Shown one piece after another: positions 1 to 54,847 of a DNA stretch of 64,000 bases. Source of the DNA: Gemmatimonadota bacterium. Lineage in GTDB: Bacteria > Gemmatimonadota > Gemmatimonadetes > Palauibacterales > Palauibacteraceae. The DNA lies in NCBI GenBank assembly GCA_046757845.1, contig JBHHYZ010000003.1:26628-90627 (forward strand). The letters are read 5' to 3'. Below the pieces are notes generated by a model. The model did not search any database. It was not told where the DNA came from and saw only the letters and a list, made by a program, of their open reading frames with translations. Made by a program: the position numbers and the translations under genes. Numbering within the stretch: the first letter of the stretch is position 1; each line of letters begins with the position of its first letter.

Positions 1-647
1 TGAGCCGTCCAGGCCTCGTACTCGCCCGCCTCGTGAATCACCACCCGCGCCCTCATGCGATAATGCCCCAGACCGCACAGCTCGGCACAGCCGATCTCCA
101 TCTCGCCCGGCCGCAGCGCCTGGAACCAGATGCGGATCTTCATTCCGGGCACGGCATCCTGCTTCACGCGCAGATCGGGGATGAAGAACGAGTGGATCAC
201 ATCTTCGGACTCCAGCTGCACGATCACCGGTTCTCCCGCCGGGATGTGGAACTGGTTCCGCAAGTGGAAATCGTCATCCGTGCCCAGCTCGCCATCCGCG
301 CCTGGATATGTGACATTCCACTCAAACTGTTTTGCTTTAACTCCAATAGTTAAAGCATCTTCTGGGAATGACGCATTCCCGCGAATCCCCGCCCAAATCC
401 GACCGCTATAGATGCCGAGAAACACGAGCACGAGGGCGGGCACCGCGGTCCAGATCAACTCCAGACGCTGGCTCCCATGGGTATACAGCGCCCGGTGCCC
501 CTCGCGCCGACGGTACCGGATCGAGAACCATACGATGCCCACCTCGACCAGCACGAAGGCGATTCCCGTGATCACGAGAATGATGAAGAACAGCCTGTCG
601 ATGTCGATCCCCTGGGTCGACAGGTTGGGAGGCAGCGACCAGTCCAC
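1..647 (-). CDS. coxB: cytochrome c oxidase subunit II, C-terminus cut by the window edge
   Basis: My own minus-strand translation from a GTG at 645-647 gives two N-terminal TM helices, then the COX II core 'IGVKAKQFEWNVTYPG' and the CuA site 'GEMEIGCAELCGLGHYRMRARVVIHE'. There is no stop codon before position 1, which explains its absence from the ORF track. Confidence 0.8.
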   Translation of the reverse strand, partial: MDWSLPPNLSTQGIDIDRLFFIILVITGIAFVLVEVGIVWFSIRYRRREGHRALYTHGSQRLELIWTAVPALVLVFLGIYSGRIWAGIRGNASFPEDALTIGVKAKQFEWNVTYPGADGELGTDDDFHLRNQFHIPAGEPVIVQLESEDVIHSFFIPDLRVKQDAVPGMKIRIWFQALRPGEMEIGCAELCGLGHYRMRARVVIHEAGEYEAWTA

Positions 648-723: not shown

Positions 724-1617
724 CTAGCGCCCGGCCCCCGCCGGCTGAGGATCCGGCGATCTCCGCCCGGCGGCCGCCGAACCGTGGTCCACGACCAACG
801 GCGTACCGAGGGGAACATCGGCCCCTGCCGCCATATCCGCGCTGTACTGGAACGCGACCTCCTGCGTCTCCTGAGGTCCCAGGGTGACGTTCTGCGTCAG
901 CGTCCCGTACTTCTCGTGCCACGCCTCGATCACATAGTCGCCGGGTGGGAGGTTGGGGATCTCGAAGCTGCCGTCCGCTCCCGAGACCGCGAAGTACGGA
1001 TGGTCCACCACCCCGATGTAGGCGTGCATCCAACCGTGGACGTCACACTTGACCGGAATCATCACCTCGGGCGTTCGGAACTGCCGCCTCGACTCCATCC
1101 CCGCCTGGGGCTGACTGATGTTGAACCCACGGTTGGCCGTGGGCTGGGTGTTGATGTTGTGCAGCACCGGATCGTCGTTCTTGATCAGGAGAGTCTGCCC
1201 TGTCTGAACACCCAGCACATGCGGATGATAGCGGCACCCAGCCTGGTCGATCTCCACGCTCTCCTCCGGGGGTGGGAAGCTTCCCGAAAGACCCTCCTTC
1301 ACGTACACGAACACGTTGGCCAGCTTGCCCTCGTTCACCACCACCGTCTGAGTGGTGGGTCCCTGGTCACCGTACTTCGCGGCGCACGCCGGCTCTTCCG
1401 ACATGTCGATCGGCTCGGCCGGAGGCGGCGTGCCATCGAACGAGATCGTGCCACGGATCGCCGCCGCTTCCTCCGGGCTCACCGCGGGCGCTGCCGCTTC
1501 GGTCGCCTCCCCGGCCTGTCCACCGGACGAGGAACCCGCTCCTTCTCCACCGCCACCGCAGCCGAACAGGACGACCGCCGGAAACAGTGCCACAGACTTC
1601 AAGATCAGAGTTCGCAT
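724..1617 (-). CDS. secreted lipoprotein-like protein with a cupredoxin-like (type-1 Cu) motif and a carboxypeptidase-regulatory-like domain
   Basis: Internal ATG at 1615-1617 gives 'MRTLILKSVALFPAVVLFGCGG', a signal peptide with lipobox. 'KCDVHGWMHAYIGVV' fits a cupredoxin C-x2-H-x2-M loop. The C-terminal 'GADGSFEIPNLPPGDYVIEAWHEKYG' is CarbopepD_reg-like. The ORF-track N-terminal extension from 2070 is spurious. Confidence 0.5.
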   Translation of the reverse strand: MRTLILKSVALFPAVVLFGCGGGGEGAGSSSGGQAGEATEAAAPAVSPEEAAAIRGTISFDGTPPPAEPIDMSEEPACAAKYGDQGPTTQTVVVNEGKLANVFVYVKEGLSGSFPPPEESVEIDQAGCRYHPHVLGVQTGQTLLIKNDDPVLHNINTQPTANRGFNISQPQAGMESRRQFRTPEVMIPVKCDVHGWMHAYIGVVDHPYFAVSGADGSFEIPNLPPGDYVIEAWHEKYGTLTQNVTLGPQETQEVAFQYSADMAAGADVPLGTPLVVDHGSAAAGRRSPDPQPAGAGR

Positions 1618-1682: not shown

Positions 1683-3233
1683 TCATGGCGCCGGGAAGCG
1701 GCGTTGCGCCCGGCGAACGAGACCGATGCTCAGTCCGCCCGTGAGCAACACCGCGAGCAACGGTACCAGAAGCACCCTTGCCGAGCCCGGCTTCTCGAGC
1801 AGCACGTAATACCAGGTTCCGATCGAGCCTCGAGTCCCGGTTTCTCCGCTGGAGCCATCCCAGGCGAAGAAGGCTACGGGAATCGGCGTTCCCTGCTCGA
1901 ATCCGAGTTCGCTTTCGTCGGCCGCGTCCAGGGCTCTGCGCAGCACCAGGCTCCAGCGTCCCTTCTCGTACGCCGACTTCGCCGTCAGGCCTCCACCGAC
2001 CAGTGGCTCGAAGTTCGCCAGGCCCCTGGCCCAGGCCTCCGAGCCCCCCTCCAGGCTGTTCCAACGCCACAGGTAGGCCGGGTTCCGCTCGTCTCCCATG
2101 AGGAAATATGGACGCTCGGAGCCCTCCGGAATCTCGGGTGGAAACTGGACGGCGAAGGCGTCCGGAATTGGACGTGTGGGAATTCCCTCGCTATCGGCGA
2201 ACAGGCTCGCGGCGATCTTGGCCTGCCATTCGTCCCAGTTCGGATCCGGACTCCGGGAAGGATCGTCCCAAACGAGCCGAAGCGCCAGGTCTGTGCCGTC
2301 ATGCAGACCCTGCACCCACACGCCGTCCACCGTCGGAGAGAACTGGCGCGGCCTCCGAATGACCTGGCCGACGAGCGGGAAGTAGAACGCTTCGGCCTGC
2401 TCCCAGGCCGGATCTTCCGGGGAATCGGGCACCTTTCCTTCCGTCCGCCGCACTCGGACCACCTCGCGCACGTGCGGGGCCTCCCGCGGACCCAGGTTGG
2501 CTACGTAATGCGCCAGCTGCCAGATCTCCTCATCCGTGACGACCCCCCCCTCCAGAACATCGATGGCCGCCGGCATCGGCGTGCCGTCAAGGCCCGTCAG
2601 GATCCGGGTGTGGATGGCCTCGACGCTGCTTCCACCATTGAACAACCATGACTCGGTGAGGTCCGCCGCCCGGATCGGCAGCTTCCGCCAATCCTCCAGC
2701 GACGGTGCCGAGGGGCCATCTCCGCGGCCGGCCTCTCCGTGACACTTGGCACACTCGAGCTTGCCGAACACGGTTCGCCCTGATTCGATCGCGTCCTCCC
2801 CGCCGCCAGGGTCCGAAGTGAATTCCATCGCTTCCGGCACCTCGTCCTCGAAGAACGGGGAGAACGCCTTGATGTAGGAGAGCACGTCGGCCCGCTGCGT
2901 CGACGACAGGTTGGGCCAGGACGGCATGGTGGTGCCGGGGATGCCATGCTCGAGGACGCGTTCCAGGTCCGCGTCCGTGGGGAGTTCGCCGCTCCCGGTC
3001 GTCCGGACTTGATAGCGCGCGGCGGTGAAATCGCGGGGACGAGGAAGCATGCGTTCCGCCGCCGGCCCATCTCCCTTCCCATCCTCCCCGTGGCAATCCA
3101 CACACCACCGCTCGTACACCAGGCGACCCCGCTCGGAACTCTGAGCGACGACCCGACCCGAAGGCCAGCCCAGAGCTGCGAGCAGCGCGATGCCCACGCC
3201 CAGCTTGACCCGAACCCTTCCCCCATCCCTCAT
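1683..3233 (-). CDS. diheme c-type cytochrome fused to an EB_dh/DOMON-like heme-binding domain
   Basis: The internal start 'MRDGGRVRVKLGVGIALLAALGW' (signal peptide) lies at 3231-3233 and overlaps the upstream stop (ATGA). Two CXXCH motifs: CVDCHG and CAKCHG. The C-terminal half ('PYFLMGDERNPAYLWRWNS...AFFAWDGSSGETGTRGSIGTWYYV') resembles the ethylbenzene-dehydrogenase gamma / NxrC-type heme domain. A C-terminal TM helix follows. Confidence 0.6.
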   Translation of the reverse strand: MRDGGRVRVKLGVGIALLAALGWPSGRVVAQSSERGRLVYERWCVDCHGEDGKGDGPAAERMLPRPRDFTAARYQVRTTGSGELPTDADLERVLEHGIPGTTMPSWPNLSSTQRADVLSYIKAFSPFFEDEVPEAMEFTSDPGGGEDAIESGRTVFGKLECAKCHGEAGRGDGPSAPSLEDWRKLPIRAADLTESWLFNGGSSVEAIHTRILTGLDGTPMPAAIDVLEGGVVTDEEIWQLAHYVANLGPREAPHVREVVRVRRTEGKVPDSPEDPAWEQAEAFYFPLVGQVIRRPRQFSPTVDGVWVQGLHDGTDLALRLVWDDPSRSPDPNWDEWQAKIAASLFADSEGIPTRPIPDAFAVQFPPEIPEGSERPYFLMGDERNPAYLWRWNSLEGGSEAWARGLANFEPLVGGGLTAKSAYEKGRWSLVLRRALDAADESELGFEQGTPIPVAFFAWDGSSGETGTRGSIGTWYYVLLEKPGSARVLLVPLLAVLLTGGLSIGLVRRAQRRFPAP

Positions 3234-4057
3234 CACTCCCCTCCCGCCGCCTGTTCCCAGGTTCGGGGCGTGCTTCCGGTCTGCCGGTACAGGAAGATGA
3301 TCACGGACCATATGTCGTCTTCGTCCAGCACATCTTCCCATACGGGCATGGCCGAGTTCCAGGGCGTTCCCTCCACGGGTAGCCCCGGTCCTCCCTTCGC
3401 GATCCTCCAGAACACGTAGCTCTCCTGGAGCTGTGAGATCGTGCCCCCGCTCGAGAAATCGGCCGGTATGGGTGAGAACGCCGCGGCGTAGTGCCCGGCC
3501 CCATCCAGCCGATCGCCGTGGCAGGGCACGCAGTTCTCCGCGTAGATGCGGGCGCCGTGGCGGTAGGACTCCTCCAGGTCGCCCAAGCTTCGCAGGGGGT
3601 TCTCCAGGCCGGCCAGGCGCATCGTCCGCCCCCGGAACGTGATCTGGGTTGGAGGAGCCGGATGGATGGATCGCAGGCTGGCCGGCGCTCCGAAGCTGGG
3701 CTTCACGCTCTCGTAGGCCAGGTAACCAACCAGGAGTGGGAGACAGACGAGCAGGATGCCCCGAAGCCACCGTCGCTCGGATTCCACCATGGTACGGTGG
3801 ATCGGCTGCTTGAACTCCGTCCAGCGGTTCTCATCCGCGCTCACGTAGAGCAGCACGCCGGCCACGGCGATCAGCATGTACTGCAAAAGCACGGAGTGTG
3901 GAACCGGAGCGCTGTGCACGCCCGCGGCGGGCAGGAGGGATCCGATTCCGTATTTGAATACCACGTAGGATCCGATCAGGAGCAGCACGGCTTGCCAGAA
4001 CGGATGCCGCAGGTATCCTCTCATCTCCCGTCCTCGCGTCGATCCGGCCTCCTCCAC
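3233..4057 (-). CDS. membrane-anchored monoheme c-type cytochrome
   Basis: N-terminal TM helices, then one CXXCH (CVPCHGD) in a C-terminal soluble domain. The start is either 4057 or the ATG at 4024. Confidence 0.6.
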   Translation of the reverse strand: MEEAGSTRGREMRGYLRHPFWQAVLLLIGSYVVFKYGIGSLLPAAGVHSAPVPHSVLLQYMLIAVAGVLLYVSADENRWTEFKQPIHRTMVESERRWLRGILLVCLPLLVGYLAYESVKPSFGAPASLRSIHPAPPTQITFRGRTMRLAGLENPLRSLGDLEESYRHGARIYAENCVPCHGDRLDGAGHYAAAFSPIPADFSSGGTISQLQESYVFWRIAKGGPGLPVEGTPWNSAMPVWEDVLDEDDIWSVIIFLYRQTGSTPRTWEQAAGGE

Positions 4058-4061
4058 GAGA

Positions 4062-4865
4062 TCATTTCGCGCCCCGCAGAAAATCCACCAGGGCCTCGAG
4101 CTGCGCGGCGGTCAGCCGATCTCCGAAGTTGGGCGGCATGGTTCCGGCGAACGCCTCGAAACCCTGAGCGGTGTCGGCGTTGGGCCGTAGGATGCCCCGT
4201 CGCAGATACTCCCGATCCTTGCCGGCAAGGCTGCTGAACGGCGGGCCCACCTTGCCGCCTTCGCCCTCGAGCTCGTGGCAGGCCAGACATCCGAGCGTAT
4301 GGATCAGCTCGCGTGGGCTCAGCGAAGCCTCGAGGATGGTCCCCCCGCCGGCGGCGGTCCCCCCGCTTCCGTCCACACCTGCGGCCTTGGCCGGAATGTC
4401 GTCGGCGGTCACCGTCACCTCCCCACCCTGGCTCTCCAGAAAAGCGACGAGAGCCCAGATCTGGGACTCCGACAGCGTACGACCCATGGGCGGCATGATG
4501 GGCTGGAAGCCCTCCACGACATACGCCGCCGGGTCGACGAGGGATTCGTAGAGATACTCCTTGCACGACATCCCCGGCTTGCGGGACGCGCACCGGGTTC
4601 CGACCTCGCGCAGCAGATCCGGCGCGCGCGTTCCCAGGCCATGGCAGGCCGTACAGCCGCCCGCGCCCCGGAACAGCTCGCCGCCGATGCGCACCAGCTC
4701 CTCTGGGGTCACATCACCACTGATGCTCACAGCCTCCGGGACCTCCGACTGAACCTGCGGGATCATGTTGGCGACCGCCGTATACACGGCCAGTGTCCCG
4801 GCCACGGTGAGGCCGATGTTCAGGTTCGTGCGCCACATGGAGGTACGACCGAATTCGCGGTTCAT
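4062..4865 (-). CDS. membrane-anchored diheme c-type cytochrome
   Basis: N-terminal TM anchor and two CXXCH motifs (CTACHG, CLACHE). The start overlaps the upstream stop (ATGA at 4862-4865). Confidence 0.65.
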   Translation of the reverse strand: MNREFGRTSMWRTNLNIGLTVAGTLAVYTAVANMIPQVQSEVPEAVSISGDVTPEELVRIGGELFRGAGGCTACHGLGTRAPDLLREVGTRCASRKPGMSCKEYLYESLVDPAAYVVEGFQPIMPPMGRTLSESQIWALVAFLESQGGEVTVTADDIPAKAAGVDGSGGTAAGGGTILEASLSPRELIHTLGCLACHELEGEGGKVGPPFSSLAGKDREYLRRGILRPNADTAQGFEAFAGTMPPNFGDRLTAAQLEALVDFLRGAK

Positions 4866-6691
4866 TCCGGCCTCCCCCCGGCCGGAGCTGTATCTCCCGA
4901 CGATCGGCCGACCGATCTCGCGGCGCTGCTCATCAGAGCGGGCTTCTCCACTAGGCCGCCCAGCCAGAAGATGAGCCCCACCAATCCGAAGAAGATGAGA
5001 ACGCAGATGCTGATCATGGTGGCGGCGGGTCCGAGCGCGGGGGTGGCGGCCTGGGGACTCGTATCGCGCATCACCTCGTACACATGCCAGTGTTGCCGGA
5101 TGCCGCTACGGGCGAAGCCCATGAGTCCCATGAGCCAGGTGAAGGTGACCGCCAGAACGAGCAGGGCGTACTGCGAGCGCGCCGGCATCTGGCCCCAGCG
5201 GATCGCACCACGCGACGTGGCTCCCCGCATCATCGCGATATCGATGGCCACCACGAACACGATGGTGGCGAGGACGGCCAGCACCTGGTAGACGCTGAAG
5301 CCGATGCGGATGATGGCGGTCACGAAGTAGCCGTACACTCCGTAGAAAACCACCACGAGGGCCGCGACTCCGAACGCCAGCCCCTGCAGCCAGGTGCCGG
5401 CTCGCGCCCACGCCACGACCGGCTCCTTGTTGGCCCGGCGATACAGAAGAAACGAGAGGAAGGTCGTGAGGATCATGAGATTCACGGCCGTGTTCTTGGC
5501 GCTCATCACGCCGAGCACGCCGAGAAACGGGTGGTGAGTACCGCCCATCGCGGCGATCTCATCTCGATTCGCGATCATCGTATGCGGGGTCGACCACACC
5601 AGGACGCCCAGCACCAGCACCAGAAGCATCCACTTGATGTGGGGCCGGAAGCGCTCGGCCCCCGGAATCCTTCCCATCCCGATCCACAGGTAGTAGTTGC
5701 CCGCCAGGAAGAGCACTCCGATCAGGAACGCCTGGATGATCCACAACCAGCTCATGAACCCGCCCATCATCGTGATGCCCAGCTGCTGGTTGTACTCGTA
5801 GATCTCGCGGCCGAGATAGTAGCCCGCGAAGGGGAGGACGATGAGGGCTCCGATCGCGATGAGGTTGCCGATGTAACCCATCCAGTCGTAGTGGGCCCGT
5901 TCCTCCTCGGTCCGCGCGGCCAGGAATCGGTAGGCGGCATAGGCTCCGACGATCGCTCCGCCGAACACCACGTTGGCGATGAGGCGGTGGATGTTGATCG
6001 GCATCCACGTCGCATTGGCCAACGCGCTCCACAGCTTCACCTGTTGTGGCGCCGTGTCCGCGGTCACCTCCGCCGGCGGGCTCATCATGTACGTGAGCCA
6101 ACCGTTGGCGATGAACATCACCGTCGTGCCCCATACATTGAGGAGGATTCCGAGACCCAGGTGGAATCTCTTGCCGGCGCCCCGGCTCCAGCGGTCCCAA
6201 CCGTAGTAGTAGAGGTACAGGGTGAAGGATTCCACGAAGAACAGGCCCACATACAGCCACATGGACGGGCCGAAGATCGCCGTCAGATAGACCCAGAATT
6301 TCGGGTAGAGGGTGGACAGGAAGAATACGAGCACCGCCCCCCAGATGGCAGTGGCGCTGTACGCGATCAACAGCAGGCGGGTGAACTCCTTGGCCAGCTT
6401 GTCGTAACGCTCTTCCCGGGTGAATATTCCGATCCCCTCCACCACCACGGCGAACATCGGCACACCCAGCACGAACGCCGCGAACATCAGATGGAGCTGG
6501 GCCGCGATCCACACTGCGCCCCGCGCATCCAGACCGAACAGGTGGAACTCCCCGTAAGCGGGAGGGCCGTCCTGCGCCAGCAGCGGGCCCGCCACCAGGA
6601 GCAGCGACGCGGCGGCCAGGACCCAGACGAGAGCGGAGCAGCGAGGTCGGCTCTTCTCTCCGGAAGAACGCTTCATCCCTGGCGCCATCAA
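4862..6691 (-). CDS. cytochrome bd ubiquinol oxidase subunit I-like (CydA family) integral membrane protein, orphan (no CydB)
   Basis: 609 aa and polytopic. The N-terminus 'AAQLHLMFAAFVLGVPMFAVVVE' matches the CydA helix-1 signature with the heme-ligand His. 'ANGWLTYMMSPP' is a GW..E-like motif. It is longer than canonical CydA, with extra C-terminal TM helices. No CydB gene is adjacent. The start overlaps the rSAM stop (ATGA). Confidence 0.65.
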   Translation of the reverse strand: MMAPGMKRSSGEKSRPRCSALVWVLAAASLLLVAGPLLAQDGPPAYGEFHLFGLDARGAVWIAAQLHLMFAAFVLGVPMFAVVVEGIGIFTREERYDKLAKEFTRLLLIAYSATAIWGAVLVFFLSTLYPKFWVYLTAIFGPSMWLYVGLFFVESFTLYLYYYGWDRWSRGAGKRFHLGLGILLNVWGTTVMFIANGWLTYMMSPPAEVTADTAPQQVKLWSALANATWMPINIHRLIANVVFGGAIVGAYAAYRFLAARTEEERAHYDWMGYIGNLIAIGALIVLPFAGYYLGREIYEYNQQLGITMMGGFMSWLWIIQAFLIGVLFLAGNYYLWIGMGRIPGAERFRPHIKWMLLVLVLGVLVWSTPHTMIANRDEIAAMGGTHHPFLGVLGVMSAKNTAVNLMILTTFLSFLLYRRANKEPVVAWARAGTWLQGLAFGVAALVVVFYGVYGYFVTAIIRIGFSVYQVLAVLATIVFVVAIDIAMMRGATSRGAIRWGQMPARSQYALLVLAVTFTWLMGLMGFARSGIRQHWHVYEVMRDTSPQAATPALGPAATMISICVLIFFGLVGLIFWLGGLVEKPALMSSAARSVGRSSGDTAPAGGRPE

Positions 6692-8046
6692 TGCCTCCGT
6701 GCGAAGAACGGCAGGCGACGGGAGAAATCTACCGGCATCTCGGCACGCACCTCCTGCATCACTTCAAGCGTGATCCGCTCGTAGCCCCGGTCCCGGGCGA
6801 AGGACTCGACTCGGCCGGCCACCACGCCGCGGACGAAAGAAGGAATCCGCCTCAGCTTCCGCTCCGCCTCCGGAGTCCACTCCAGGGCGCGCGTGACCTC
6901 GGCCCCGTAGGTGGTCGCCCGGGCGCGCGGGACGGGCTCGGCCCAGCCGGCCGGCTCGTAGGCACAGGACTCATCGGGTCCCAGGAAATCGCCATCGGTG
7001 GCATAGGCTCGGGCTCGACAACCGCCGCACACCTCACGGTATTCGCAACGGCCGCACTTGCCGCCGGGCCGACCCTCGCGCAGCAGGCGGAACAGCCTGG
7101 ACGAGCGCCATATCGTGCCGAAGTCGTCCTGCCGGAGGTCGCCCGCCACGGCTGGCATGTAGGGGCATGGCGTCACCGCCCCCTCGGGGGTGATCCGACA
7201 GTACTGGACTCCACACGGGCAGCGGGTCGCGTAATGCAGGAGCGGCGATTCGGGGTCTCGCTCATACACGTGCCGCATCAACTGAGGCTGGCACTTGGAG
7301 CGGATCATGAGCCGGCCACGGTATTCACGCTGCAACCGAACCAGCTCCAGCAGCACTTCCTCGTTCTCCGTCGGTGACAGTCCGGCCATGCCGCTGCCGC
7401 GGCCCGTCTCCACCAGGAAGTAGAAGTTGACGCACACCGCACCCATCCGATCCGCCCAGGACACCAGTCCCTCCACCTCGCGGTGGTTTCCCCTGGTGAG
7501 GGTCATCTGGACCACGAAGTCCAGACCCTGCCGGCGGAGGCGGCCCACGGCGTCGAGCGTGTCCTGGAGCGCCCCCCGGCCATGTCGGAAGCGGTCATGG
7601 TAGCGCGGATTCAACGAATCGACGCTGAGGGCGACTCCCTGCACGCCCGCTCCCATCAGGGATCCGATCCGCTCCTCCGTCAACAGTGTCCCGTTCGTCC
7701 CGACCACCACGGTGGCGCCCCCGCTCGAAGCGTGGCCCGAAATCGTTTCGAGATCCTCACGTAGCAGGGGCTCACCACCGCTGAGGATGAGCATCGGCGC
7801 GGGGTTGACCGACAACACCTGATCCACGATGCGAAGACACGCGTCCGTGCCCAGCTCTTCCTCCGCTCCATGCCATGAACCGGCCGAGATGTAACAGTGG
7901 GCGCAGGCCAGATTGCAGCGCCGCGTGAGATTCCAGGCCACGACGTGAGGCCGTGCGACAGTCGCTTCATCCCGCCCCCGGGAGAGTGGGCCGAGGGCCG
8001 GCTTGAGCCACCGAGTGGCTCGAGCCTCACTCCGACTCCCGCCCAT
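6688..8046 (-). CDS. radical SAM/SPASM-domain protein (NirJ/AhbC/AhbD-like) with a C-terminal PCP_red-like domain
   Basis: 'VVAWNLTRRCNLACAHCY' is the CxxxCxxC radical SAM motif of the SPASM/NirJ group. The C-terminal Cys-rich region 'CPCGVQYCRITPEGAVTPCPY...CGRCEYREVCGGCRARA' is the SPASM domain. The tail 'TPEAERKLRRIPSFVRGVVAGRVESFARDRGYERITLEVM' resembles the BchB/ChlB C-terminal PCP_red domain. Confidence 0.7.
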   Translation of the reverse strand: MGGSRSEARATRWLKPALGPLSRGRDEATVARPHVVAWNLTRRCNLACAHCYISAGSWHGAEEELGTDACLRIVDQVLSVNPAPMLILSGGEPLLREDLETISGHASSGGATVVVGTNGTLLTEERIGSLMGAGVQGVALSVDSLNPRYHDRFRHGRGALQDTLDAVGRLRRQGLDFVVQMTLTRGNHREVEGLVSWADRMGAVCVNFYFLVETGRGSGMAGLSPTENEEVLLELVRLQREYRGRLMIRSKCQPQLMRHVYERDPESPLLHYATRCPCGVQYCRITPEGAVTPCPYMPAVAGDLRQDDFGTIWRSSRLFRLLREGRPGGKCGRCEYREVCGGCRARAYATDGDFLGPDESCAYEPAGWAEPVPRARATTYGAEVTRALEWTPEAERKLRRIPSFVRGVVAGRVESFARDRGYERITLEVMQEVRAEMPVDFSRRLPFFARRH

Positions 8047-10105
8047 CCCCGTCCCTCTCCACCAACCTCTCCACCGCCGCTCTCGCGTCCGCGGGACTCA
8101 CCATCGCGAAATCCACCGGGCACGCGGCCGCCTGCGCCTCGATGTCCCGAATCGGACACCGGCTCACCCCGGAGGCCTTCGCCTCCTCGATGAACCGCTT
8201 CATCTCAGCGCTGAGTCCGTCTCCGCCGGTCACGTCGGCTCGGGCCTGTTTTGCCTTCAGCTCGTTGAACATCACCAGCATCGTATCCATGTCGAACTCG
8301 TCCGCCTCGATCATGGCCTCCTTGTTCTCGTCCATGACGCGCGTCGTCACGCGCCACAGGCCATGTGCGCGGGCGAACCGCTCCACCGTGTTGCGGGCCA
8401 GGGGGCGGGCGATCAGCGGCACCTGATTGAGTCGCGCGAAGGCTTCGTGCGTCCACACGATCGGATCTCCGGCAGCTCTCTGGCGGGAAGTCAGATGGCC
8501 GCTGTGAGGACACCGTTCCTGGACGGGAGGCGGAGACTCCGGACACTCCGCGTCGCGAGTCCGAACCACCGTGCGCTTCATCGCCTCTTCAGCCTTCAGC
8601 TCGGCGAGCGCGAACTCTTCCGCATCCCCGATCCCCATGATCAGCTGCATGTGGGTGGGAAGGAGCTTACGAATCGCCTCATCGAGCCTCTGGTTGGTGA
8701 CGGTGGGCAGGGTGGGAATGCCGAGCGCGGATTCCCGTCCGCCGCCGTCGGGCGAGCCATCCTCCCCGTCGTCAAAGGCGGCCGCGTAGCGGCTCCCGGG
8801 CCCGTGGAACTCGAGGACGTACTCCTCCACCGCCCTGCGGGCGATGCCCAGGGCGAAAGGTGGTACGCGGAGAATCCTCACCTCCGCCTCCGGAGCCCAT
8901 TCCAGGCCCTGTCGCCCATCCTCCTCGATCCAGGGGATCTCCTCCGGGCGCACATCCGTCGTCCCCGCGATCAGGATGTTGGTCGGGGCCAGGCGGGCAA
9001 GGTTCTCCGCCTGGCTGCCGAGCTCGGTTCCCTCGATCCGGTGTGCGCCATGCCGGGCGAGGATCAGGAGGGTGGGATCGATCTCTTCAGCCCACTGCAG
9101 GACCACCTGAAACGGCTTGCCTATCAGGATCTGCGTGTGGATCTCGACCTCGGGATACTCCCCGCCCATCACCTCCGCGCGCTTGATGTTGGCCTGGCAG
9201 AGCTTCAACAACCCCTTGTCGATGATGTTGTTGTGCAGCGCCTCCTGCTCCTCGAACTTGAACACCTTGGAGGCCTGGGCAGAAAGAACATCTTTGATGT
9301 TGTGGAACACGACGTGGTGGTACTCCACGTCGAAGGCGCTGCACACGTAGAGGCTGGCGGAGAACTCGCGCGCCAGCTCCAGCGCCTTCCGCAGACCCCT
9401 GTAAGCGTACGCCGACCCGTCCACGCAGACCATGAACCGTCCGCCCTCGAGCGGCCGCCCATCCCGGACGAGCAACACGTCCTTGCGGATGCAGCGAAGC
9501 GCTCGGCCGGCCACGCCACCCAGCTGGCTGTAGGGCTGCCGACCCAGGCCGTGCGCACCCAAGATCACGAGATCGTAGTCGCGCCCCGAGGTGCCGGCCA
9601 ACTTCTGTTCGGCCGTCTCCTCCTCGGCGATGATGCGGCCGTCTTCCCCCAGCCTGACATCGGAGCGGACCTGCTCGCCGCCGTCGTAATGGTGGGCAAT
9701 ATTGGGATCGAACCCGATCAGGCTGGGAAGCCGCCCGCTTCCGGAGTTGGACTCGCGGACGATCTCTTCGTAGTTGATTCCCTCCAGCAGTTGCCGCGTC
9801 AGCGGCACTCCGGCCTGCCCGCAACGCTGGGCCACCTGATCCAGAAAACTGTCCGAGATGAGCTGCAGGCCTTTCTCGATGAGCTTGTCGTGGATCTTCC
9901 GCTGGCGGCGGATCTCTTGCGGCTCCTGGAACTGGGCGGGGAGCCCGATCTCCAGCTGGCGGAATCGTACGTCGTGCAGGCGAGCGGCGTAGACGTGCGT
10001 AGCCGTGATACGGCCCTGCGACCTCTCGCAGAGCTCGATAGCCCTGTCGACCGCCCAATCCGAGTGCTCGGAGTTGTCGACAGGGACGAGAAGCTCTCGA
10101 TACAT
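8027..10105 (-). CDS. tandem universal-stress-protein (UspA) domain protein with two PCP_red-like domains
   Basis: Two UspA-like modules ('LLVPVDNSEHSDWAVDRAIEL', 'FMVCVDGSAYAYRGLRKALELA'). Two PCP_red-like repeats ('WAPEAEVRILRVPPFALGIARRAVEEYVLEFHG', 'WTHEAFARLNQVPLIARPLARNTVERFARAHG'). An acidic C-terminal tail. Confidence 0.55.
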   Translation of the reverse strand: MYRELLVPVDNSEHSDWAVDRAIELCERSQGRITATHVYAARLHDVRFRQLEIGLPAQFQEPQEIRRQRKIHDKLIEKGLQLISDSFLDQVAQRCGQAGVPLTRQLLEGINYEEIVRESNSGSGRLPSLIGFDPNIAHHYDGGEQVRSDVRLGEDGRIIAEEETAEQKLAGTSGRDYDLVILGAHGLGRQPYSQLGGVAGRALRCIRKDVLLVRDGRPLEGGRFMVCVDGSAYAYRGLRKALELAREFSASLYVCSAFDVEYHHVVFHNIKDVLSAQASKVFKFEEQEALHNNIIDKGLLKLCQANIKRAEVMGGEYPEVEIHTQILIGKPFQVVLQWAEEIDPTLLILARHGAHRIEGTELGSQAENLARLAPTNILIAGTTDVRPEEIPWIEEDGRQGLEWAPEAEVRILRVPPFALGIARRAVEEYVLEFHGPGSRYAAAFDDGEDGSPDGGGRESALGIPTLPTVTNQRLDEAIRKLLPTHMQLIMGIGDAEEFALAELKAEEAMKRTVVRTRDAECPESPPPVQERCPHSGHLTSRQRAAGDPIVWTHEAFARLNQVPLIARPLARNTVERFARAHGLWRVTTRVMDENKEAMIEADEFDMDTMLVMFNELKAKQARADVTGGDGLSAEMKRFIEEAKASGVSRCPIRDIEAQAAACPVDFAMVSPADARAAVERLVERDGDGRESE

Positions 10106-10321
10106 CCCTGCTCCGGGCTAAGGGGTATCAGCCGTGCCGGTCCCTCTATCTCAATCGAGCCTGACGGCCCGCCAAGTCTGAGCCTGCCACCCTGGTATCG
10201 ATGCGCTTCCGGTCTCGGACGCCGCGCGGACCGGGAGAGTCCGCTCGGGATCGCGGCGTGCCGAGTAAATCCGGCCCCTCATGGTGCCCCGAAACGGCTT
10301 CCCGAGGCCGGCGCGGACAAA

Positions 10322-10350
10322 CTTATAGCCGCGAGCACTCCCGAAGTCAA
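10322..10350 (-). promoter_or_regulatory. candidate sigma70-type promoter with a ~210-nt leader before the Usp-PCP_red gene
   Basis: The minus strand reads TTGACT-17 nt-TATAAG (rc of plus 10322-10350). It lies in the 260-nt gap between the ABC-2 permease and the Usp gene. Confidence 0.3.
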
Positions 10351-10366
10351 ACCGGCCGCGATCCCG

Positions 10367-11050
10367 TCAGCGACCCGTCAATCTGCGGGCGAGAAGCGGC
10401 GCCAGGAGAAGCGCGATGCCCGTCAAAACGAGCCCTCCAGCCAGGCCGGGAAGCCAGGCTCGGCTCGCTCCTCGGAACGATTCGCCCCATCCACCGGCCA
10501 CCTGGCCCATGGCCTCGTGAAGCGGCCCGAACGGGCTCACCGCCTTGGCCGCCCATGCCCAGGTATGCCGCTCCGGGACCCGGAATACGCCAGCCATATG
10601 GAGAGCGAAAAGCGCGGTGGCGGCACACGCCAGTGCGCCCTCCGCCAAGGAGCGGACCACGGCCGCTACCAGCGCGCCCAGGACGTTGGCCGAGAGGAGC
10701 GCGAGGCTCATGGCGGCCAGCGCCGCCACGGCGCCCGCGGGTCGCAAACCCTCAGCGAGGAAGAGCAGCAGCATGGCCGGCAGCAATTGCAGGGTATCCA
10801 AACATGAAGCCGCCAGGAGGCGCTCCCCCAGCCAGCGCCGCTCTCCGTATCCCGTCAGGAGGATCTTCTCCGTCCAGCCCGAATCCGCATCCCGGACCAG
10901 CGGGACGCAGCTGCCGAACGCGCCGAAGAAAACGATGAACAGGGTGAACACCACCGCCCGGTGCGCTTCCGGGGCCGAGCTCAGCGCAACCGGCCCCAGC
11001 AAGCCCAGCGGCACGCCGACGTTCCACAACAACAGGCGACGGCGCCGCAT
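10367..11050 (-). CDS. ABC-2 type transporter permease
   Basis: Multi-TM hydrophobic protein immediately downstream of the ABC ATPase. The likely start is the internal 'MRRRRLLLWNVG' at 11050; the ORF-track extension to 11422 overlaps the ATPase. Confidence 0.5.
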   Translation of the reverse strand: MRRRRLLLWNVGVPLGLLGPVALSSAPEAHRAVVFTLFIVFFGAFGSCVPLVRDADSGWTEKILLTGYGERRWLGERLLAASCLDTLQLLPAMLLLFLAEGLRPAGAVAALAAMSLALLSANVLGALVAAVVRSLAEGALACAATALFALHMAGVFRVPERHTWAWAAKAVSPFGPLHEAMGQVAGGWGESFRGASRAWLPGLAGGLVLTGIALLLAPLLARRLTGR

Positions 11051-11085
11051 CGCGATGCGCCATTCGAGAGCCCACACATCACGCT

Positions 11086-12012
11086 TCACGGAGAGTCCTG
11101 GACTCCGAGCGAGGCTCCCGTCATCGAGAGGAAGACGTCGTCCAGATCGGGCTCGCGAATCCGCACGCTGTTGAGCTCCACACCGCCGCGCACCAGCCAC
11201 CCACAGAACTCCGGGAGCTGTCCCGATCCGCCTGCCGAAGCGAAGCGGGCGATGCCGTCGTCGCTCCCCAGAGCCACCACGCCCTCCGGCGGACCCCCGG
11301 GGAGACGGATGCCTTCCCACTCCACTTCGAACACCGTCTGACGTTCCAGTCCACCCACCAGCTGGGCCGGCGCACCCTCGGCCACCACTCTTCCCCCATA
11401 CAACAGAATCACCCGGTCGCACCCCGCCGCGAACGAGGCATCATGCAGCGCCACGACCGCTCCCCCTCCCCGCGCCGAGTGCTCCTCGAGGGCGTGGGCG
11501 AGAACCGCTCGAGCCTCCACATCGAGACCGATCAGCGGTTCGTCCAGGAGAAGCAACTCCGCACCCGAGGCGAACGCCTCGGCCAGCGCCAGGCGCCGTC
11601 TCTGGCCGAGCGAGTAGGTGGACGCGCGCCGCCCCGCCCGATCCGCCAAGCCGAACCGCGTGAGCCACCGCGAGATCGCCCGGGCGTCACGGGTCACGCC
11701 CCGCAGCCTGGTCAGATGCGCCAGGTTCTCCCCACCGGTGAGGTCGGGATGGATCGGAAGATAGTCGAACACGACGGCCAGTCGGCGGCGAAGCTCCCTC
11801 AGAGGGAGCGAACCGGACTCCGCCAGCAGACGCAGGGTGCCGTACGCCGGCACTGTCGCGGTCGCCAGCATCCGGAGAAGCGTGGTCTTGCCGGAGCCGT
11901 TCGGGCCTACGAGAGCCACGACCTCGCCCCTGCGGACTGAGACATCCACGCCGCGCAGCGCCCACGTCCCGTCGCGATACCGATAGCTCAGGTCATGCCC
12001 GGTGGCCAGCAC
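11086..12012 (-). CDS. ABC transporter ATP-binding protein
   Basis: Walker A 'GPNGSGKTT', signature 'LGQRRRL' and Walker B 'LLLLDEP'. Confidence 0.8.
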   Translation of the reverse strand: MLATGHDLSYRYRDGTWALRGVDVSVRRGEVVALVGPNGSGKTTLLRMLATATVPAYGTLRLLAESGSLPLRELRRRLAVVFDYLPIHPDLTGGENLAHLTRLRGVTRDARAISRWLTRFGLADRAGRRASTYSLGQRRRLALAEAFASGAELLLLDEPLIGLDVEARAVLAHALEEHSARGGGAVVALHDASFAAGCDRVILLYGGRVVAEGAPAQLVGGLERQTVFEVEWEGIRLPGGPPEGVVALGSDDGIARFASAGGSGQLPEFCGWLVRGGVELNSVRIREPDLDDVFLSMTGASLGVQDSP

Positions 12013-12021
12013 CCCCCCACC

Positions 12022-12282
12022 TCACGGAACCAGAAGCACGCCGGCTCCATCGGACACCGTGATCGCGTCCACCGGACACGCCGCGCAGGCCTCCAGGAGC
12101 CGGGCTCGCGGCACTTCGCCCGAACCGCGGAACACGGCGATTCCTTCCTCATCCAGATCGAATGCCTCCGGCGCCACGGTACAGCAGTCGGCGAATCCCA
12201 CGCACAGATCCCGGTCGATGCGCAGGGTGAGGCCGTGAACTCGACACAGGCCTGCTCCAGGTGGGGCGTGCACCGGCTTCAC
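12022..12282 (-). CDS. small [Fe-S] ferredoxin
   Basis: 86 aa; 'CVGFADCCTVAP...CPVDAI' is a single-cluster ferredoxin pattern. Confidence 0.55.
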   Translation of the reverse strand: MKPVHAPPGAGLCRVHGLTLRIDRDLCVGFADCCTVAPEAFDLDEEGIAVFRGSGEVPRARLLEACAACPVDAITVSDGAGVLLVP

Positions 12283-12764
12283 ATCCCTTCCAGCCCCAGG
12301 TCACTCCGGGCCCGGTCCATCACCGAAGGCGTGATCTCGCCGATCCCGTGCTGCCTAGCGTAATCCGCATAGATGCGCTTCACCATGCCCCGGACGAAAC
12401 GAGGGACCTGCTCGAGCCGCTCGACGGCCTCGAAGCTCCAGCGCACCGGTCCGTCCGCCGCGTCCCCGGAACAGGCGGGTGGTGCCGCCGGCGGGCTGTC
12501 CCGCTCCATCGAATCGGCGAACGCCTCCTCCTTCCCCTCGGCCAGCGAACGCCGCACCAGCTCCAGGGGCTGAGAAGGAACGGTGCGACCCCCCACCACC
12601 ACCCCCAGCGAACTCACCAGCTGCGTCTCCATCGGGTTGGCCAGCATGGCGGTCATCCTCTCACACCTGGGGCAGCGAAACACGGCCGCGAAGGTTCCGT
12701 CACCCGGGAGCTCCCGCTCCTCGAACACCATCTGCTCATCGCATTCAACGCACAGGAACTTCAT
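12279..12764 (-). CDS. zinc-ribbon + PCP_red-like domain protein
   Basis: N-terminal 'CVECDEQ...CPRCER' is a CxxC...CxxC zinc ribbon. C-terminal 'WSFEAVERLEQVPRFVRGMVKRIYADYARQHGIGEITPSVMD' is a PCP_red-like domain. Confidence 0.5.
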   Translation of the reverse strand: MKFLCVECDEQMVFEERELPGDGTFAAVFRCPRCERMTAMLANPMETQLVSSLGVVVGGRTVPSQPLELVRRSLAEGKEEAFADSMERDSPPAAPPACSGDAADGPVRWSFEAVERLEQVPRFVRGMVKRIYADYARQHGIGEITPSVMDRARSDLGLEGM

Positions 12765-12782
12765 GCCGTCCCACTCACCCCT

Positions 12783-13680
12783 TCAATCTCTCGAACCCCG
12801 GTCGTGAAGCCGTTCCACGATCCGTCGGGCGATCTCCCTCAGGGCTCGTCCCGCCTCGGTCCGGGCCAGCAGCTCGCCCATTCGGCCGGCCTCGGCCAGC
12901 CGTCCCGCCACGCAATCGAACGGTATCCGGCCCAGCAGAGGGACCCGAAAACGGGAGGCCAGAGTGCGGCCGGCCTCACCCGGGAACAGGGGGCCCACCG
13001 TTTCACAGGTCGGGCAGTGGTAGCCCGACATGTTCTCGACGATGCCCAGCAACTCGATCCCCCTTCGACGGCAGAGTGTAAGCGAGCGTTCAACGGACTC
13101 GCGCGCCGCCTCCGACGGAGCCGTCACGGCCACCACTCCGGCGAGGGCCGGCACGAGCTCGTGCAGCTCGAGCAGCCGCTGCGTGACCGGAGGCAGATCC
13201 ACCAACAGGAAATCCAGGGACCCCCACTCCACATCGGAGAGGAACTCCCTCAGCGCGCCCCTTTCCTGCGCACCTCTCCACACGAAGCTGTCCGACCCCG
13301 GCTCGCGCCATTCCACGGGCTGGGCGTCCGAGAGCAGCAGGGCCATCGACATCAGAACCACGCCATCGGGCGAGATCGCGGGTCGCACGGACCGGTCGAC
13401 CGCCTCCAGCGGAGTCGAGCGGACCCCTAGCATGCGCGCCGCGGTAGGACCGTTGAGATCGGCATCCAGGAGCCCGATCGAGCCATGATCGCGACGCAGA
13501 GCCGTAGCCAGGACCGCACTCACCAGGCTCTTGCCGACTCCGCCCTTGCCGCTCATCACGGCGATCACCGAGTCGACCTCGCGGATCCGCTGGGCGACCC
13601 TGGCCGCCTGTTCCTGGACCTGTGCTCCCAGACCCGACGCGTCCGGTCCGGTGAGTTGATGATACGTCCGAATTACCACG
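12783..13680 (-). CDS. Mrp/NBP35 (ApbC) family iron-sulfur cluster carrier ATPase
   Basis: 'IAVMSGKGGVGKS' P-loop and 'CPTCETVGPLF' (CxxC) characteristic of ApbC. The likely GTG/TTG start is near 13680; the ORF-track N-terminus from 13829 looks non-coding. Confidence 0.75.
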
Positions 13681-13897
13681 CTCCGCGCACGCTCCTTCGG
13701 CGTGTGTCCGCCTGCCGGGAGAGAGTTCGCCAAGCACCCGCTCGACGACCGTACAACGTGCCCGCCGACCCCTGAACGCGTCAAGCGGACGTTGCCCGGT
13801 ACCCACGGGCTTCCGCGTCCGGGCCCCATCGCCTAGGTTTCATACAGTGCAGATCGGCCGCTCGGCGGCCGGAAGCTCCATCATCCCTGGGGTCTGT

Positions 13898-14104
13898 ATG
13901 TCGATCATCGGGTTTCACCGTTTGCTGATCACGATCGCCATTCTGTTCTGCGCCGGCTTTGCAGTCCGGGAAAGTGTCCGCTGGGCCGCCGGAGCCGGGG
14001 GCCTGGCACTGCTCCTGGCCGGCGGCTTCGCGCTGGCAGCGGCTGGCCTGGGTTATTACCTGGCGCACCTGAGTCGATTCCTGCAGGGAAAGCGGTCCAC
14101 CTGA
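13898..14104 (+). CDS. small two-TM membrane protein (hypothetical)
   Basis: 'MSIIGFHRLLITIAILFCAGF...LALLLAGGFALAAAGLGYYLA' gives two hydrophobic helices. It is divergent from the big operon. Confidence 0.3.
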   Translation: MSIIGFHRLLITIAILFCAGFAVRESVRWAAGAGGLALLLAGGFALAAAGLGYYLAHLSRFLQGKRST

Positions 14105-14109
14105 CCAGG

Positions 14110-14745
14110 ATGCCGCGCTGGCTCCTCGCCGGCGGTCTGCTCTTCGCACTGGTACTGGGAAGCCTCCTGGTCTCTTCCCTGTCGCGTCCGACGCCTTCCA
14201 CCTTCCTACCTACGCCGCCCGCTCCGTCGGCGGCGGGGGATTCGCTGATCTGGGACCGCTTGTACACGATCGACGCCCGGGATGCGCAGCGATGGGTGTT
14301 CTTCGATTTCTCCCGCTCGTCGGTCGTCGTCGACCCCGGACCGCTGCAATGGGATCTGGCGGTACGCCGGTTTCACCTCATCACGAACGGAGGACCGTCC
14401 TTCCCTGGCGGCGGCGGGGTGATCGAGATGCCCGGCGTGGATCTCGATTCACTTACCGAGGCGCCGCGCGGAGAATACGTGGAGACGGCAGGCTCGTTCG
14501 ACTCGAACGCGGCGAATCCGGTCTTGGACCGCTGGTATCGATACGGCTACGTGAGCCATCTGCTGGAGCCTCGCCCCCGAACCTATGTTTTCCGCACCGC
14601 GGATGGCCGGTACGCGAAGCTGAAGATTCTGAGCTACTATTGTCCCGGTGCGGTGCCGGGCTGCCTCACGTTTCGCTATACCTACCAGGGCGCGGGAGGG
14701 CGGAGGCTCACGCGAGCGGCCCCACCTCCAGAATCTTCCGGATGA
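14110..14745 (+). CDS. secreted hypothetical protein
   Basis: Signal peptide 'MPRWLLAGGLLFALVLGSLLVSS'. No recognised catalytic motif. Confidence 0.4.
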   Translation: MPRWLLAGGLLFALVLGSLLVSSLSRPTPSTFLPTPPAPSAAGDSLIWDRLYTIDARDAQRWVFFDFSRSSVVVDPGPLQWDLAVRRFHLITNGGPSFPGGGGVIEMPGVDLDSLTEAPRGEYVETAGSFDSNAANPVLDRWYRYGYVSHLLEPRPRTYVFRTADGRYAKLKILSYYCPGAVPGCLTFRYTYQGAGGRRLTRAAPPPESSG

Positions 14746-35451: not shown

Positions 35452-35522
35452 GGGCAGAGTCCGGGCCGCTCGTGTCTCGCCCGGTCGATCCGGGCCCGAT
35501 CGCCGCCCTATCGCCCGCCGTC

Positions 35523-54822: not shown

Positions 54823-54847
54823 GGGCCTATACTTCCGGCCACGTCGT

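Follow-up and report, generated by a model that had tools for sequence, protein, structure and literature searches.

What does a CydA homolog do that is encoded among cytochromes c, with no CydB beside it? The question is raised by a 609-aa protein in the stretch of Gemmatimonadota DNA analysed here (64 kb in all, referred to below as the window). Within the cytochrome bd superfamily, the OR-N2 subfamily (Murali, Gennis & Hemp 2021) comprises proteins that are normally encoded with c-type cytochromes in place of CydB, and a "cytochrome bd-like oxidase" of Nitrospira, Nitrospina and anammox bacteria has been described from 2013 onward (Lücker 2013). Nitrifiers of global importance (Nitrospira, Nitrospina) are believed to rely on OR-N "bd-like" proteins as their principal or sole terminal oxidase; none of the OR-N enzymes has been purified or assayed, as the literature states explicitly. 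The gene and its neighbours are listed here from upstream to downstream.

8027..10105, minus strand: protein with universal-stress-protein domains and two PCP_red domains
6688..8046, minus strand: radical SAM/SPASM enzyme from the NirJ2/AhbD group, which modifies tetrapyrroles; a PCP_red domain forms its C-terminus
4862..6691, minus strand: OR-N2-type cytochrome bd-like (CydA-like) membrane haem protein, 609 aa
4062..4865, minus strand: dihaem cytochrome c with a membrane anchor, its CxxCH motifs at residues 71 and 193
3233..4057, minus strand: monohaem cytochrome c that begins with about three TM helices and has its CxxCH motif at residue 176
1683..3236, minus strand: protein of about 517 aa in which a dihaem cytochrome c is fused to an EB_dh domain (EbdC/NxrC-like haem b); TM anchor at the C-terminus
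724..1617, minus strand: lipoprotein (lipobox LFGC) made of a cupredoxin and a C-terminal transthyretin/CarboxypepD_reg-like domain
3..647, minus strand: CoxB (COX2), which includes the whole CuA motif and loses only its last few codons to the window edge

The first-pass annotation had described an oversized CydA homolog at 4862-6691, flanked by a cytochrome c (4062..4865) and a radical SAM enzyme (6688..8046), and this description was borne out. Residues 57-302 match the Pfam CydA family (PF01654, E 4.4e-24, 85.3 bits, cut-off 26.2), and the protein has the subunit I fold, in which a signal/anchor helix is followed by 13 TM helices where canonical CydA has 9. The resemblance to CydA, at first thought to be confined to the N-terminal third, extends further: most of the nine-helix core is retained, with two helix pairs inserted, one of them at the position of the quinol-binding Q-loop. 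The Pfam alignment ends ahead of that loop, at profile position 242 of 418, and the loop itself is lost, its place being taken by two TM helices (302-339 and 345-367). The cut-off of the NCBIfam CydA equivalog model is 968 bits; the protein reaches 26.9. Besides the helical core it keeps the TM1 His, the His and Met that belong to low-spin haem b558, and some of the proton path on the cytoplasmic side. The putative haem ligands are H67 (= H19), H235 (= H186) and M396 (= M393), and the putative proton-path residues E154 (= E107) and H177 (= H126). H67, which corresponds to the active-site haem ligand H19 of E. coli and aligns with H21 of Geobacillus, is kept in 30 of the 32 representatives that cover its column. 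Both Glu99 and Glu445 are lost, the former being replaced by Y147 and the latter by S529. No CxxCH motif, the criterion for OR-C, occurs in the 609-aa protein. In the predicted model, those periplasmic loops that bear conserved His residues have low confidence.

These features place the protein in the described OR-N2 subfamily; it is not a new family. The first-pass annotation had proposed a distinct bd-like family, which is correct insofar as the protein is separate from canonical CydAB, and misses that the family is the OR-N2/bd-like oxidase of the literature. The assignment rests on residue signature, topology and operon content. In Table S6 of Murali et al. (2021) the OR-N2 signature keeps H19, H186, H126 and E107, replaces E99 by Y, F114/F116 by Y/Y, M393 by M/N and E445 by S/A, and keeps the W; the CydA-like protein agrees at every diagnostic position checked (H67, H235, H177, E154, Y147, Y161/Y163, M396/N400, S529 and W535), and the spacings from H186 (+161/+165, +294 and +300) equal those of the OR-N2 reference. 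OR-N1 has Gly at the E107 position, where this protein has E154. The 1 + 13 helices without a Q-loop agree with the 14 TM helices and missing quinol site of OR-N2, and the operon contains the multiple cytochromes c and the EbdC homolog that go with it. A Nitrospirota/Manganitrophaceae cluster representative aligns over its full length at 38-40% identity with an identical signature, and the OR-N2/NIDE0901-like "bd-like oxidase" of Nitrospira has in common with our protein the 14 helices, the absence of a Q-loop, the diagnostic residues and the company of cytochromes c and an EbdC homolog. The CydAB enzymes (E. coli bd-I, Geobacillus bd) differ by their Q-loop and CydB, by E99 and E445 in place of Y and S, and by lacking the four extra TM helices, the signal/anchor helix and the cytochrome c partners. 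We are confident that the gene is an OR-N2 gene in its standard operon.

A CydB and a second CydA were sought in the window and in the flanks of related loci. CydB is absent, as the first-pass annotation had noted for the immediate flanks, both from the 64-kb window and from +/-10 kb around the Palauibacter locus; Pfam searches of all polytopic window ORFs returned ABC-2, Na+/H+ exchanger, MlaE, FecCD and PTS components and no CydB. With phmmer, the CydA-like protein matched only itself among all 388 window ORFs of at least 90 codons, so that there is no second CydA among them. An OR-N1-type paralog is missing from the window and from +/-10 kb in 79 of the 80 related loci; the CydAA' heterodimer (OR-N1 plus OR-N2) proposed for Nitrospirales/Nitrospinota is thus not encoded locally, which sets this locus apart from that proposal. 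Each of 79 of the 80 related loci has a single CydA-like match, and the remaining one (L077) carries two copies of the whole module. The other large ORFs of the window are housekeeping genes; a HemC query gave a Porphobil_deam match (E 1e-73).

The genes around the CydA-like gene are closely packed. Its stop codon overlaps the start of the dihaem cytochrome c (ATGA), its own start overlaps the stop of the radical SAM gene (TGATG), and the true start of the EB_dh gene (3236/3233) overlaps the stop upstream of it, a longer ORF reaching to 3770 not being the gene. The published OR-N2 gene order is seen here, from the CydA-like gene through the dihaem c and the monohaem c to the dihaem-c/EbdC-like haem b protein, followed by a lipid-anchored cupredoxin with the type-1 Cu ligand set H153, C191, H194 and M197. 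The dihaem c is a homolog of Kustd1711 of the anammox nxr cluster (E 3e-19), and the EB_dh domain matches TIGR03477 (E 1.4e-24) and, weakly, NxrC (7b04_C). With four partner proteins co-encoded, the earlier statement that the protein has no partner subunit is misleading. Nor is CydB a redox partner that cytochromes might replace, as that annotation had implied, CydB being a structural subunit; the published hypothesis is that cytochromes c replace quinol as electron donor.

The module is conserved well beyond this genome. One scan gave matches in at least 599 species-level genomes. Each of the 49 Gemmatimonadota loci whose flanks were long enough keeps its gene order, which recurs in three other phyla. 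Directly downstream, 44 of 44 Gemmatimonadota loci with sufficient flank have an A-type cytochrome c oxidase operon, the relatives having COX2 and then COX1, COX3, COX4 and haem O synthase; since all 44 have it, we infer that the cox operon continues past the window edge in this genome too. COX2-COX1-COX3 likewise follow the module co-directionally in 7/8 Methylomirabilota/Rokubacteria loci and in the one Chloroflexota locus with enough flank. Upstream, a NirJ2/AhbD-like radical SAM gene, translationally coupled in our locus, is present in 59 of 60 loci, and the universal-stress-protein/PCP_red gene is its conserved upstream partner in Gemmatimonadota. This synteny suggests that the radical SAM gene is linked to the CydA-like system. 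The enzyme scores below both equivalog cut-offs (NirJ2 and AhbD); it might, with its PCP_red (tetrapyrrole-lid) domain, make a modified haem for the CydA-like protein. Natural fusions of the CydA-like protein to the dihaem c occur in three independent clusters of relatives, which gain CxxCH motifs in that way. Three loci (L066, L074 and L077) have the module without adjacent cox genes, and there the cytochromes remain beside the CydA-like gene; both this and the dihaem-c fusions led us to reject the idea that the cytochromes c serve the downstream aa3 oxidase alone. The overlapping stop and start codons, the gene order across four phyla and the fusions tie the CydA-like protein to its co-encoded c-type cytochromes, so that this half of the partnership claimed at first stands; that electrons flow from them into the CydA-like protein is a plausible extension.

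Compared with previously described OR-N2 loci, this one is distinguished by its junction to an A-type cytochrome c oxidase operon and to the radical SAM/PCP_red set of Gemmatimonadota. The cluster of Nitrospina gracilis, Nitrospira and Kuenenia stuttgartiensis (Lücker 2013; Mundinger 2019) consists of a bd-like oxidase, an alternative NxrC, mono- and dihaem cytochromes c and a cupredoxin, and shares these protein types with our locus, which has the dihaem c homologous to Kustd1711, the TM-anchored EB_dh subunit and the cupredoxin. Our locus differs in that no NXR is found here, that its EB_dh protein has an extra N-terminal dihaem c domain and that its cupredoxin, a lipoprotein, is joined to a transthyretin-like domain. 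A bd-like protein, cytochromes c and a periplasmic EB_dh haem b are also combined in the terminal oxidase complex TO_2 of Ca. Manganitrophus and in similar clusters of Nitrospinota, and a Nitrospinota relative (P0132) is 46-48% identical to our protein, but a membrane cytochrome b and two antiporter subunits of MrpD type are further components there, neither of which is in the window. Gemmatimonadota are already positive in a column of the table of Murali et al. that, its header not being visible, appears to be the one for OR-N. We found in the literature no account of the module in Gemmatimonadota or of a radical SAM-PCP_red link to bd-like proteins, and no mention of an OR-N2 module joined to an A-type cytochrome c oxidase operon. 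The locus adds nothing categorically new to the OR-N picture; it does show that many bacteria other than nitrite oxidisers have the module, that an OR-N1 partner need not accompany it in the flanks and that it lies nearly always beside a conventional cytochrome c oxidase.

What the module does is a separate matter from the established family assignment, operon structure, module conservation and physical linkage to the dihaem c through natural fusions. Taken as a whole, a CydB-less, cytochrome-c-dependent terminal oxidase of the OR-N2 type is its most likely role, one that we favour by a modest degree; that the reaction is O2 reduction has about an even chance. The CydA-like protein, the dihaem c, the monohaem c and the dihaem-c/EbdC-like haem-b protein, the products of one translationally coupled operon, would form a single membrane complex. 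High-potential periplasmic carriers would pass electrons to the c and b haems, from there to a b558-like haem and on to the haem at His67, where O2 would be reduced with protons supplied via Glu154/His177. Such a terminal oxidase may be expressed alongside the downstream A-type cytochrome c oxidase, with electron carriers in common. Several points weigh against this reading. With neither Glu99 nor Glu445 retained, the protein may not have the di-haem O2 site of true bd oxidases; homologous modules adjoin NXR in strictly anaerobic anammox bacteria; the published Nitrospirales/Nitrospinota model requires the OR-N1 partner (CydAA') that is absent within the window and its counterparts; it is unusual for one gene string to encode, beside an independent terminal oxidase, a second and canonical cytochrome c oxidase; and the His-bearing periplasmic loops are modelled with low confidence.

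Alternatively, the five-gene module could be a substitute for complex III. Electrons from the menaquinone pool would enter the bd-like protein, run through its partner subunits with haems b and c, and be handed by the cupredoxin to the CuA of the A-type oxidase. We regard this as rather unlikely. In its favour, COX2-COX1-COX3 genes lie co-directionally behind the module in three groups of bacteria, and the COX2 of our locus, whose CuA site is complete and to which no cytochrome c is fused, needs an external donor. In a survey of 326 Gemmatimonadota genomes, caa3-type oxidases were found in 74%, petB in only 23% and ACIII in <10%, and the survey suggested that novel complex III modules may exist; the deficit derives, however, from KEGG annotation of incomplete MAGs. 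A role like that of an "alternative complex III" was raised for bd-like proteins by Lücker (2013), and a fused Nitrospinota relative sits with cytochrome b and MrpD-like subunits. Against this stand the loss of the Q-loop, which leaves no recognisable quinol-binding feature, the H19/E107/H126 set, which resembles a catalytic haem and proton path needless for a simple quinol:cytochrome c wire, and the three loci in which the module has no cox genes beside it. Alternative complex III genes often precede those of caa3, but the likeness is confined to gene-order logic, in that a multihaem membrane module comes immediately before an oxidase operon, and neither ActB (Fe-S/molybdopterin-like) nor ActC/ActF (NrfD-type) subunits are present among the window ORFs. 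It is slightly more doubtful still that the OR-N2 module is the missing quinol:cytochrome c oxidoreductase of Gemmatimonadota, Rokubacteria/Methylomirabilota and some Chloroflexota. If it were, it would do the work of complex III in a third way unrelated to the other two, delivering menaquinol electrons to the downstream A-type oxidase, and would account for the cytochrome c oxidases that most Gemmatimonadota genomes encode with no recognisable bc1 or ACIII.

Far less probable is a role as membrane anchor and electron conduit for a periplasmic enzyme of the type II DMSO-reductase family, such as nitrite oxidoreductase. It has been proposed in the literature for the homologous cluster of Nitrospira, Nitrospina and anammox bacteria, and both the NxrC/EbdC type of the EB_dh domain and the relation of the dihaem c to Kustd1711 fit it, but no molybdopterin oxidoreductase gene lies in the 64-kb window or within +/-10 kb of the Palauibacter locus, and the conserved neighbour in these phyla is a cytochrome c oxidase, not NXR. 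NXR was absent from the regions examined in module-carrying organisms. Gemmatimonadota include cultured aerobic heterotrophs, and for both reasons they might be simpler systems in which to study OR-N2 function.

An ordinary quinol-oxidising cytochrome bd subunit I with its cydB elsewhere in the genome, as the database names and the Pfam CydA match would have it, is effectively refuted by the equivalog score, the two replaced glutamates, the 13+1 helices against 9, the absence of cydB from the window and from the relatives' flanks, and the cytochromes c that are its always-conserved neighbours. Both NCBI and JGI name the protein "cytochrome ubiquinol oxidase subunit I"; this automatic name is misleading, and such names may inflate the counts of "cytochrome bd oxidase" in surveys of Gemmatimonadota genomes.

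The CydA-like gene reads from a TTG codon and occupies 4862-6691 on the minus strand (609 aa), with an alternative ATG one codon further in, 6 nt after a GGAGG; the identical protein of a Gemmatimonadota bacterium MAG, which NCBI names "cytochrome ubiquinol oxidase subunit I", has its start five codons further in. The first-pass annotation had proposed, from the sequence alone, an oversized 609-aa CydA homolog here, and both CydA-signature strings that it quoted are indeed present, at residues 65 and 195. Pfam CydA matches residues 57-302 (profile positions 3-242 of 418; E 4.4e-24), and against the NCBIfam equivalog for real CydA the protein reaches 26.9 bits, the cut-off being 968. An AlphaFold2 model based on a 36-sequence alignment (pLDDT 70, pTM 0.71) shows a signal/anchor helix at the N-terminus (20-38) followed by 13 long transmembrane helices, in agreement with the roughly 14 helices first predicted. 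From helix order and membrane parity, we infer that the nine-helix core of CydA holds two inserted helix pairs, at 302-367 (the Q-loop position) and 429-487. The last 25 residues, a tail described earlier as Gly/Ser/Pro-rich, are rich in Ala/Ser/Gly/Arg, unconserved and disordered.

Supplementary Table 6 of Murali, Gennis and Hemp (2021) gives the residue found at each functional position in every subfamily of the cytochrome bd superfamily. For OR-N2 it lists 14 helices, retention of H19, H186, H126, E107 and the Trp, and the replacements E99→Y, F114/F116→Y/Y, M393→M430/N434 and E445→S; OR-N1, unlike OR-N2, has Gly at the E107 position. At the signature positions the window protein has H67, H235, H177, E154, Y147, Y161/Y163, M396/N400, S529 and W535, and the spacing from the H186 equivalent is that of the reference (+161/+165, +294 and +300). 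The complete OR-N2 signature occurs in nearly all 33 full-length cluster representatives with ≥38% identity, a set that takes in a cluster titled Nitrospira sp./Ca. Manganitrophaceae; it fails at position 154 in P0132 (Ser) and P0148 (Asp), in truncated sequences and in the divergent P0149. In a more distant subgroup (27-35% identity) E154 is replaced by L/F and M396 by E. The protein type described by Lücker et al. (2013) likewise has 14 helices, an N-terminal part aligning with CydA, conserved haem b ligands, membrane helices in place of the Q-loop and no quinol-binding residues. Outside the published signature, Y334, W336, H387, K399, R419, R528 and H536 are conserved in most representatives (Y334 fully); the predicted topology puts H387 and H536 on the periplasmic side, where, speculatively, they could form an additional metal or haem site.

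The co-directional gene string around the CydA-like gene is as follows.

6688-8046, minus strand: radical SAM enzyme, first of the string
4862-6691, minus strand: CydA-like protein
4062-4865, minus strand: membrane-anchored dihaem cytochrome c
3233-4057, minus strand: monohaem cytochrome c with about three transmembrane helices
1683-3236, minus strand: fusion of a dihaem cytochrome c with an EB_dh haem b domain, anchored at the C-terminus (the long ORF that extends to 3770 does not represent the gene)
724-1617, minus strand: lipoprotein (cupredoxin)
3-647, minus strand: CoxB, its CuA site intact, truncated by the window edge

Gene junctions include TGATG, ATGA and GTGATG overlaps, in sequence terms a mark of translational coupling. 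The flanking genes reported by the first-pass annotation were confirmed (a radical SAM/SPASM enzyme lies upstream and a dihaem cytochrome c downstream), as was the lack of a CydB partner: neither CydB nor a second CydA is encoded within the 64 kb window. For the EB_dh domain, the matches are to TIGR03477, the family of type II DMSO reductase haem b subunits (E 1.4e-24), and, weakly, to the NxrC and EbdC structures; the dihaem half of the same protein matches chain B of 6H5L, a Kuenenia HAO-like complex (E 3.6e-52). Kustd1711, the dihaem cytochrome of the nxr cluster of anammox bacteria that has been crystallised, is a homolog of the separate dihaem cytochrome (E 3e-19); titration puts the haems of Kustd1711 near +350 mV.

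When one genome per species was scanned by pattern, at least 599 loci proved to encode a relative. The best 80 of these fall in Gemmatimonadota (70-85% identity), Methylomirabilota/Rokubacteria (60-64%), one Myxococcota and two Chloroflexota. Counts among these 80, restricted to loci with enough flank to judge, are given below.

Genes accompanying the CydA-like gene, by group
Gemmatimonadota: dihaem c 56/56; monohaem c 54/54; dihaem-c/EB_dh 49/49; COX2 and COX1 downstream 44/44; radical SAM upstream 59/60
Methylomirabilota/Rokubacteria: dihaem c 11/11; monohaem c 8/10; dihaem-c/EB_dh 10/10; COX2 and COX1 downstream 7/8; radical SAM upstream 2/9
Myxococcota: dihaem c 1/1; monohaem c 1/1; dihaem-c/EB_dh 1/1; COX2 and COX1 downstream 0/1; radical SAM upstream 0/1
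Chloroflexota: dihaem c 2/2; monohaem c 1/1; dihaem-c/EB_dh 1/1; COX2 and COX1 downstream 1/1; radical SAM upstream 0/2

The cupredoxin lipoprotein also follows the EB_dh gene in Rokubacteria, Chloroflexota and Myxococcota. In 44/44 related Gemmatimonadota loci with enough flank, coxA and coxC come after coxB, and a UbiA-type haem O synthase comes next in most related loci whose flank is long enough. The two radical-SAM-positive loci outside Gemmatimonadota are L066, with sufficient flank and no cox genes downstream, and L074, whose flank is too short to judge. A second CydA-like gene was found only in the Myxococcota locus L077 among the 80, where it belongs to a second, divergently transcribed copy of the whole CydA-like/three-cytochrome module (3409-8918, minus strand, and 9824-14735, plus strand); the two copies show 49% and 60% identity to the window protein and have no cox genes nearby.

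In three independent 50%-identity clusters (P0122, P0124 and P0132) the CydA-like protein is naturally fused to a homolog of the window dihaem cytochrome c, with 37% identity over the full length of the cytochrome in P0122 (E 7e-46); P0132 is a deposited Nitrospinota fusion protein on a 72 kb contig. These fusions make it well supported that the CydA-like protein associates physically with at least the dihaem cytochrome, and the cytochromes c are more than accessories to the oxidase encoded downstream. At the Nitrospinota locus L083, the gene for the fusion (8001-10424) precedes those for two MrpD-like antiporter subunits, a multihaem-c/EB_dh protein, a dihaem c and a cytochrome b, a cluster resembling "TO_2" of Ca. 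Manganitrophus. A Nitrospirota member of the family stands alone.

The CydA-like protein is a member of a described family, in the operon type described for it. The earlier proposal of a distinct bd-like family tied to c-type cytochromes stands insofar as the described OR-N2 signature and operon and the dihaem-c fusions were found, but the family is not new and the "bd-like oxidase" had been rediscovered. Gemmatimonadota appear already to be scored positive for OR-N in the published material, the assignment of the column being our reading. Whereas papers on Nitrospirales and Nitrospinota take an OR-N1/OR-N2 CydAA' pair for granted, a local OR-N1 partner is absent in this lineage, which also differs from described OR-N2 operons in a near-obligate junction with an A-type oxidase operon and in a translationally coupled radical SAM/PCP_red gene set. 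We found no mention of these three peculiarities in the searchable literature; they alter the context and do not amount to a new kind of system. Both NCBI and JGI label this protein and related ones 'cytochrome (bd) ubiquinol oxidase subunit I', yet neither the quinol site nor CydB is present. As the identity of the protein this name is effectively refuted, and counts of 'cytochrome bd oxidase' in Gemmatimonadota (53% of genomes, PMC9426454) may include such proteins.

Almost all representatives at ≥38% identity keep the TM1 His, the His/Met pair, Glu154 and His177. In the working that we propose, the TM1 histidine would ligate the active-site haem, the His/Met pair would hold the periplasmic-side low-spin haem, and Glu154 and His177 would belong to a proton path from the cytoplasm; retention of such a path suggests chemistry at that haem beyond electron transit. 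The family of the partner dihaem cytochrome is, by Kustd1711, a high-potential one, and the complex would draw electrons from c-type cytochromes, not quinol, and reduce O2. This most economical reading, which is also that of the literature, merits only middling confidence. The reasons are that OR-N enzymes have never been assayed, that both Glu99 and Glu445 are substituted, and that anammox bacteria, which are anaerobic, carry homologous modules. That the module instead substitutes for complex III and feeds the adjacent cytochrome c oxidase would fit its position directly upstream of the oxidase operon, conserved in three phyla, and a published survey of Gemmatimonadota genomes, albeit one resting on MAGs, that found caa3-type oxidases in 74%, petB in 23% and alternative complex III (ACIII) in <10%; an ACIII-like role was raised by Lücker et al. 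(2013) in another context. We nevertheless regard this role as doubtful: a quinol site is not recognisable in the CydA-like protein, catalytic-looking residues are kept, and the module also occurs without cox neighbours. A role as anchor for an NXR-like enzyme is very unlikely here, since no such enzyme is encoded nearby. The remaining interest lies in function across the whole OR-N family and in the complex III question.

The radical SAM/SPASM enzyme (6688-8046, minus strand), whose gene is translationally coupled to the CydA-like gene, is NirJ2/AhbD-like (276 and 259 bits, under the 500-bit equivalog cut-offs) and bears at its C-terminus a PCP_red domain, which in protochlorophyllide reductase subunit B is likewise C-terminal. 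Upstream of it are a Usp protein with two PCP_red domains (8027-10105, minus strand) and a small PCP_red protein, a ferredoxin, an Mrp/NUBPL Fe-S ATPase, an ABC transporter, HmuY and HemC; further coordinates of this set are 12279-12764, 12022-12282, 12783-13829 and 15214-16152 (minus strand) and 14110-14745 (plus strand). The set, kept in 59/60 Gemmatimonadota and 2/9 Methylomirabilota loci, may serve the bd-like protein as a pathway that modifies or delivers haem; we found nothing on this in the literature. Elsewhere in the window, Pfam at E <= 0.001 matches neither of two ORFs that have coding-like GC3 and encode about 360-380 aa each (32129-33262, minus strand; 35451-36521, plus strand). 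The organism probably makes selenoproteins, since the window encodes the selenocysteine-specific elongation factor SelB (29365-31362, minus strand) and an AIR-synthase-related protein, possibly the selenophosphate synthetase SelD (53794-54882, minus strand).
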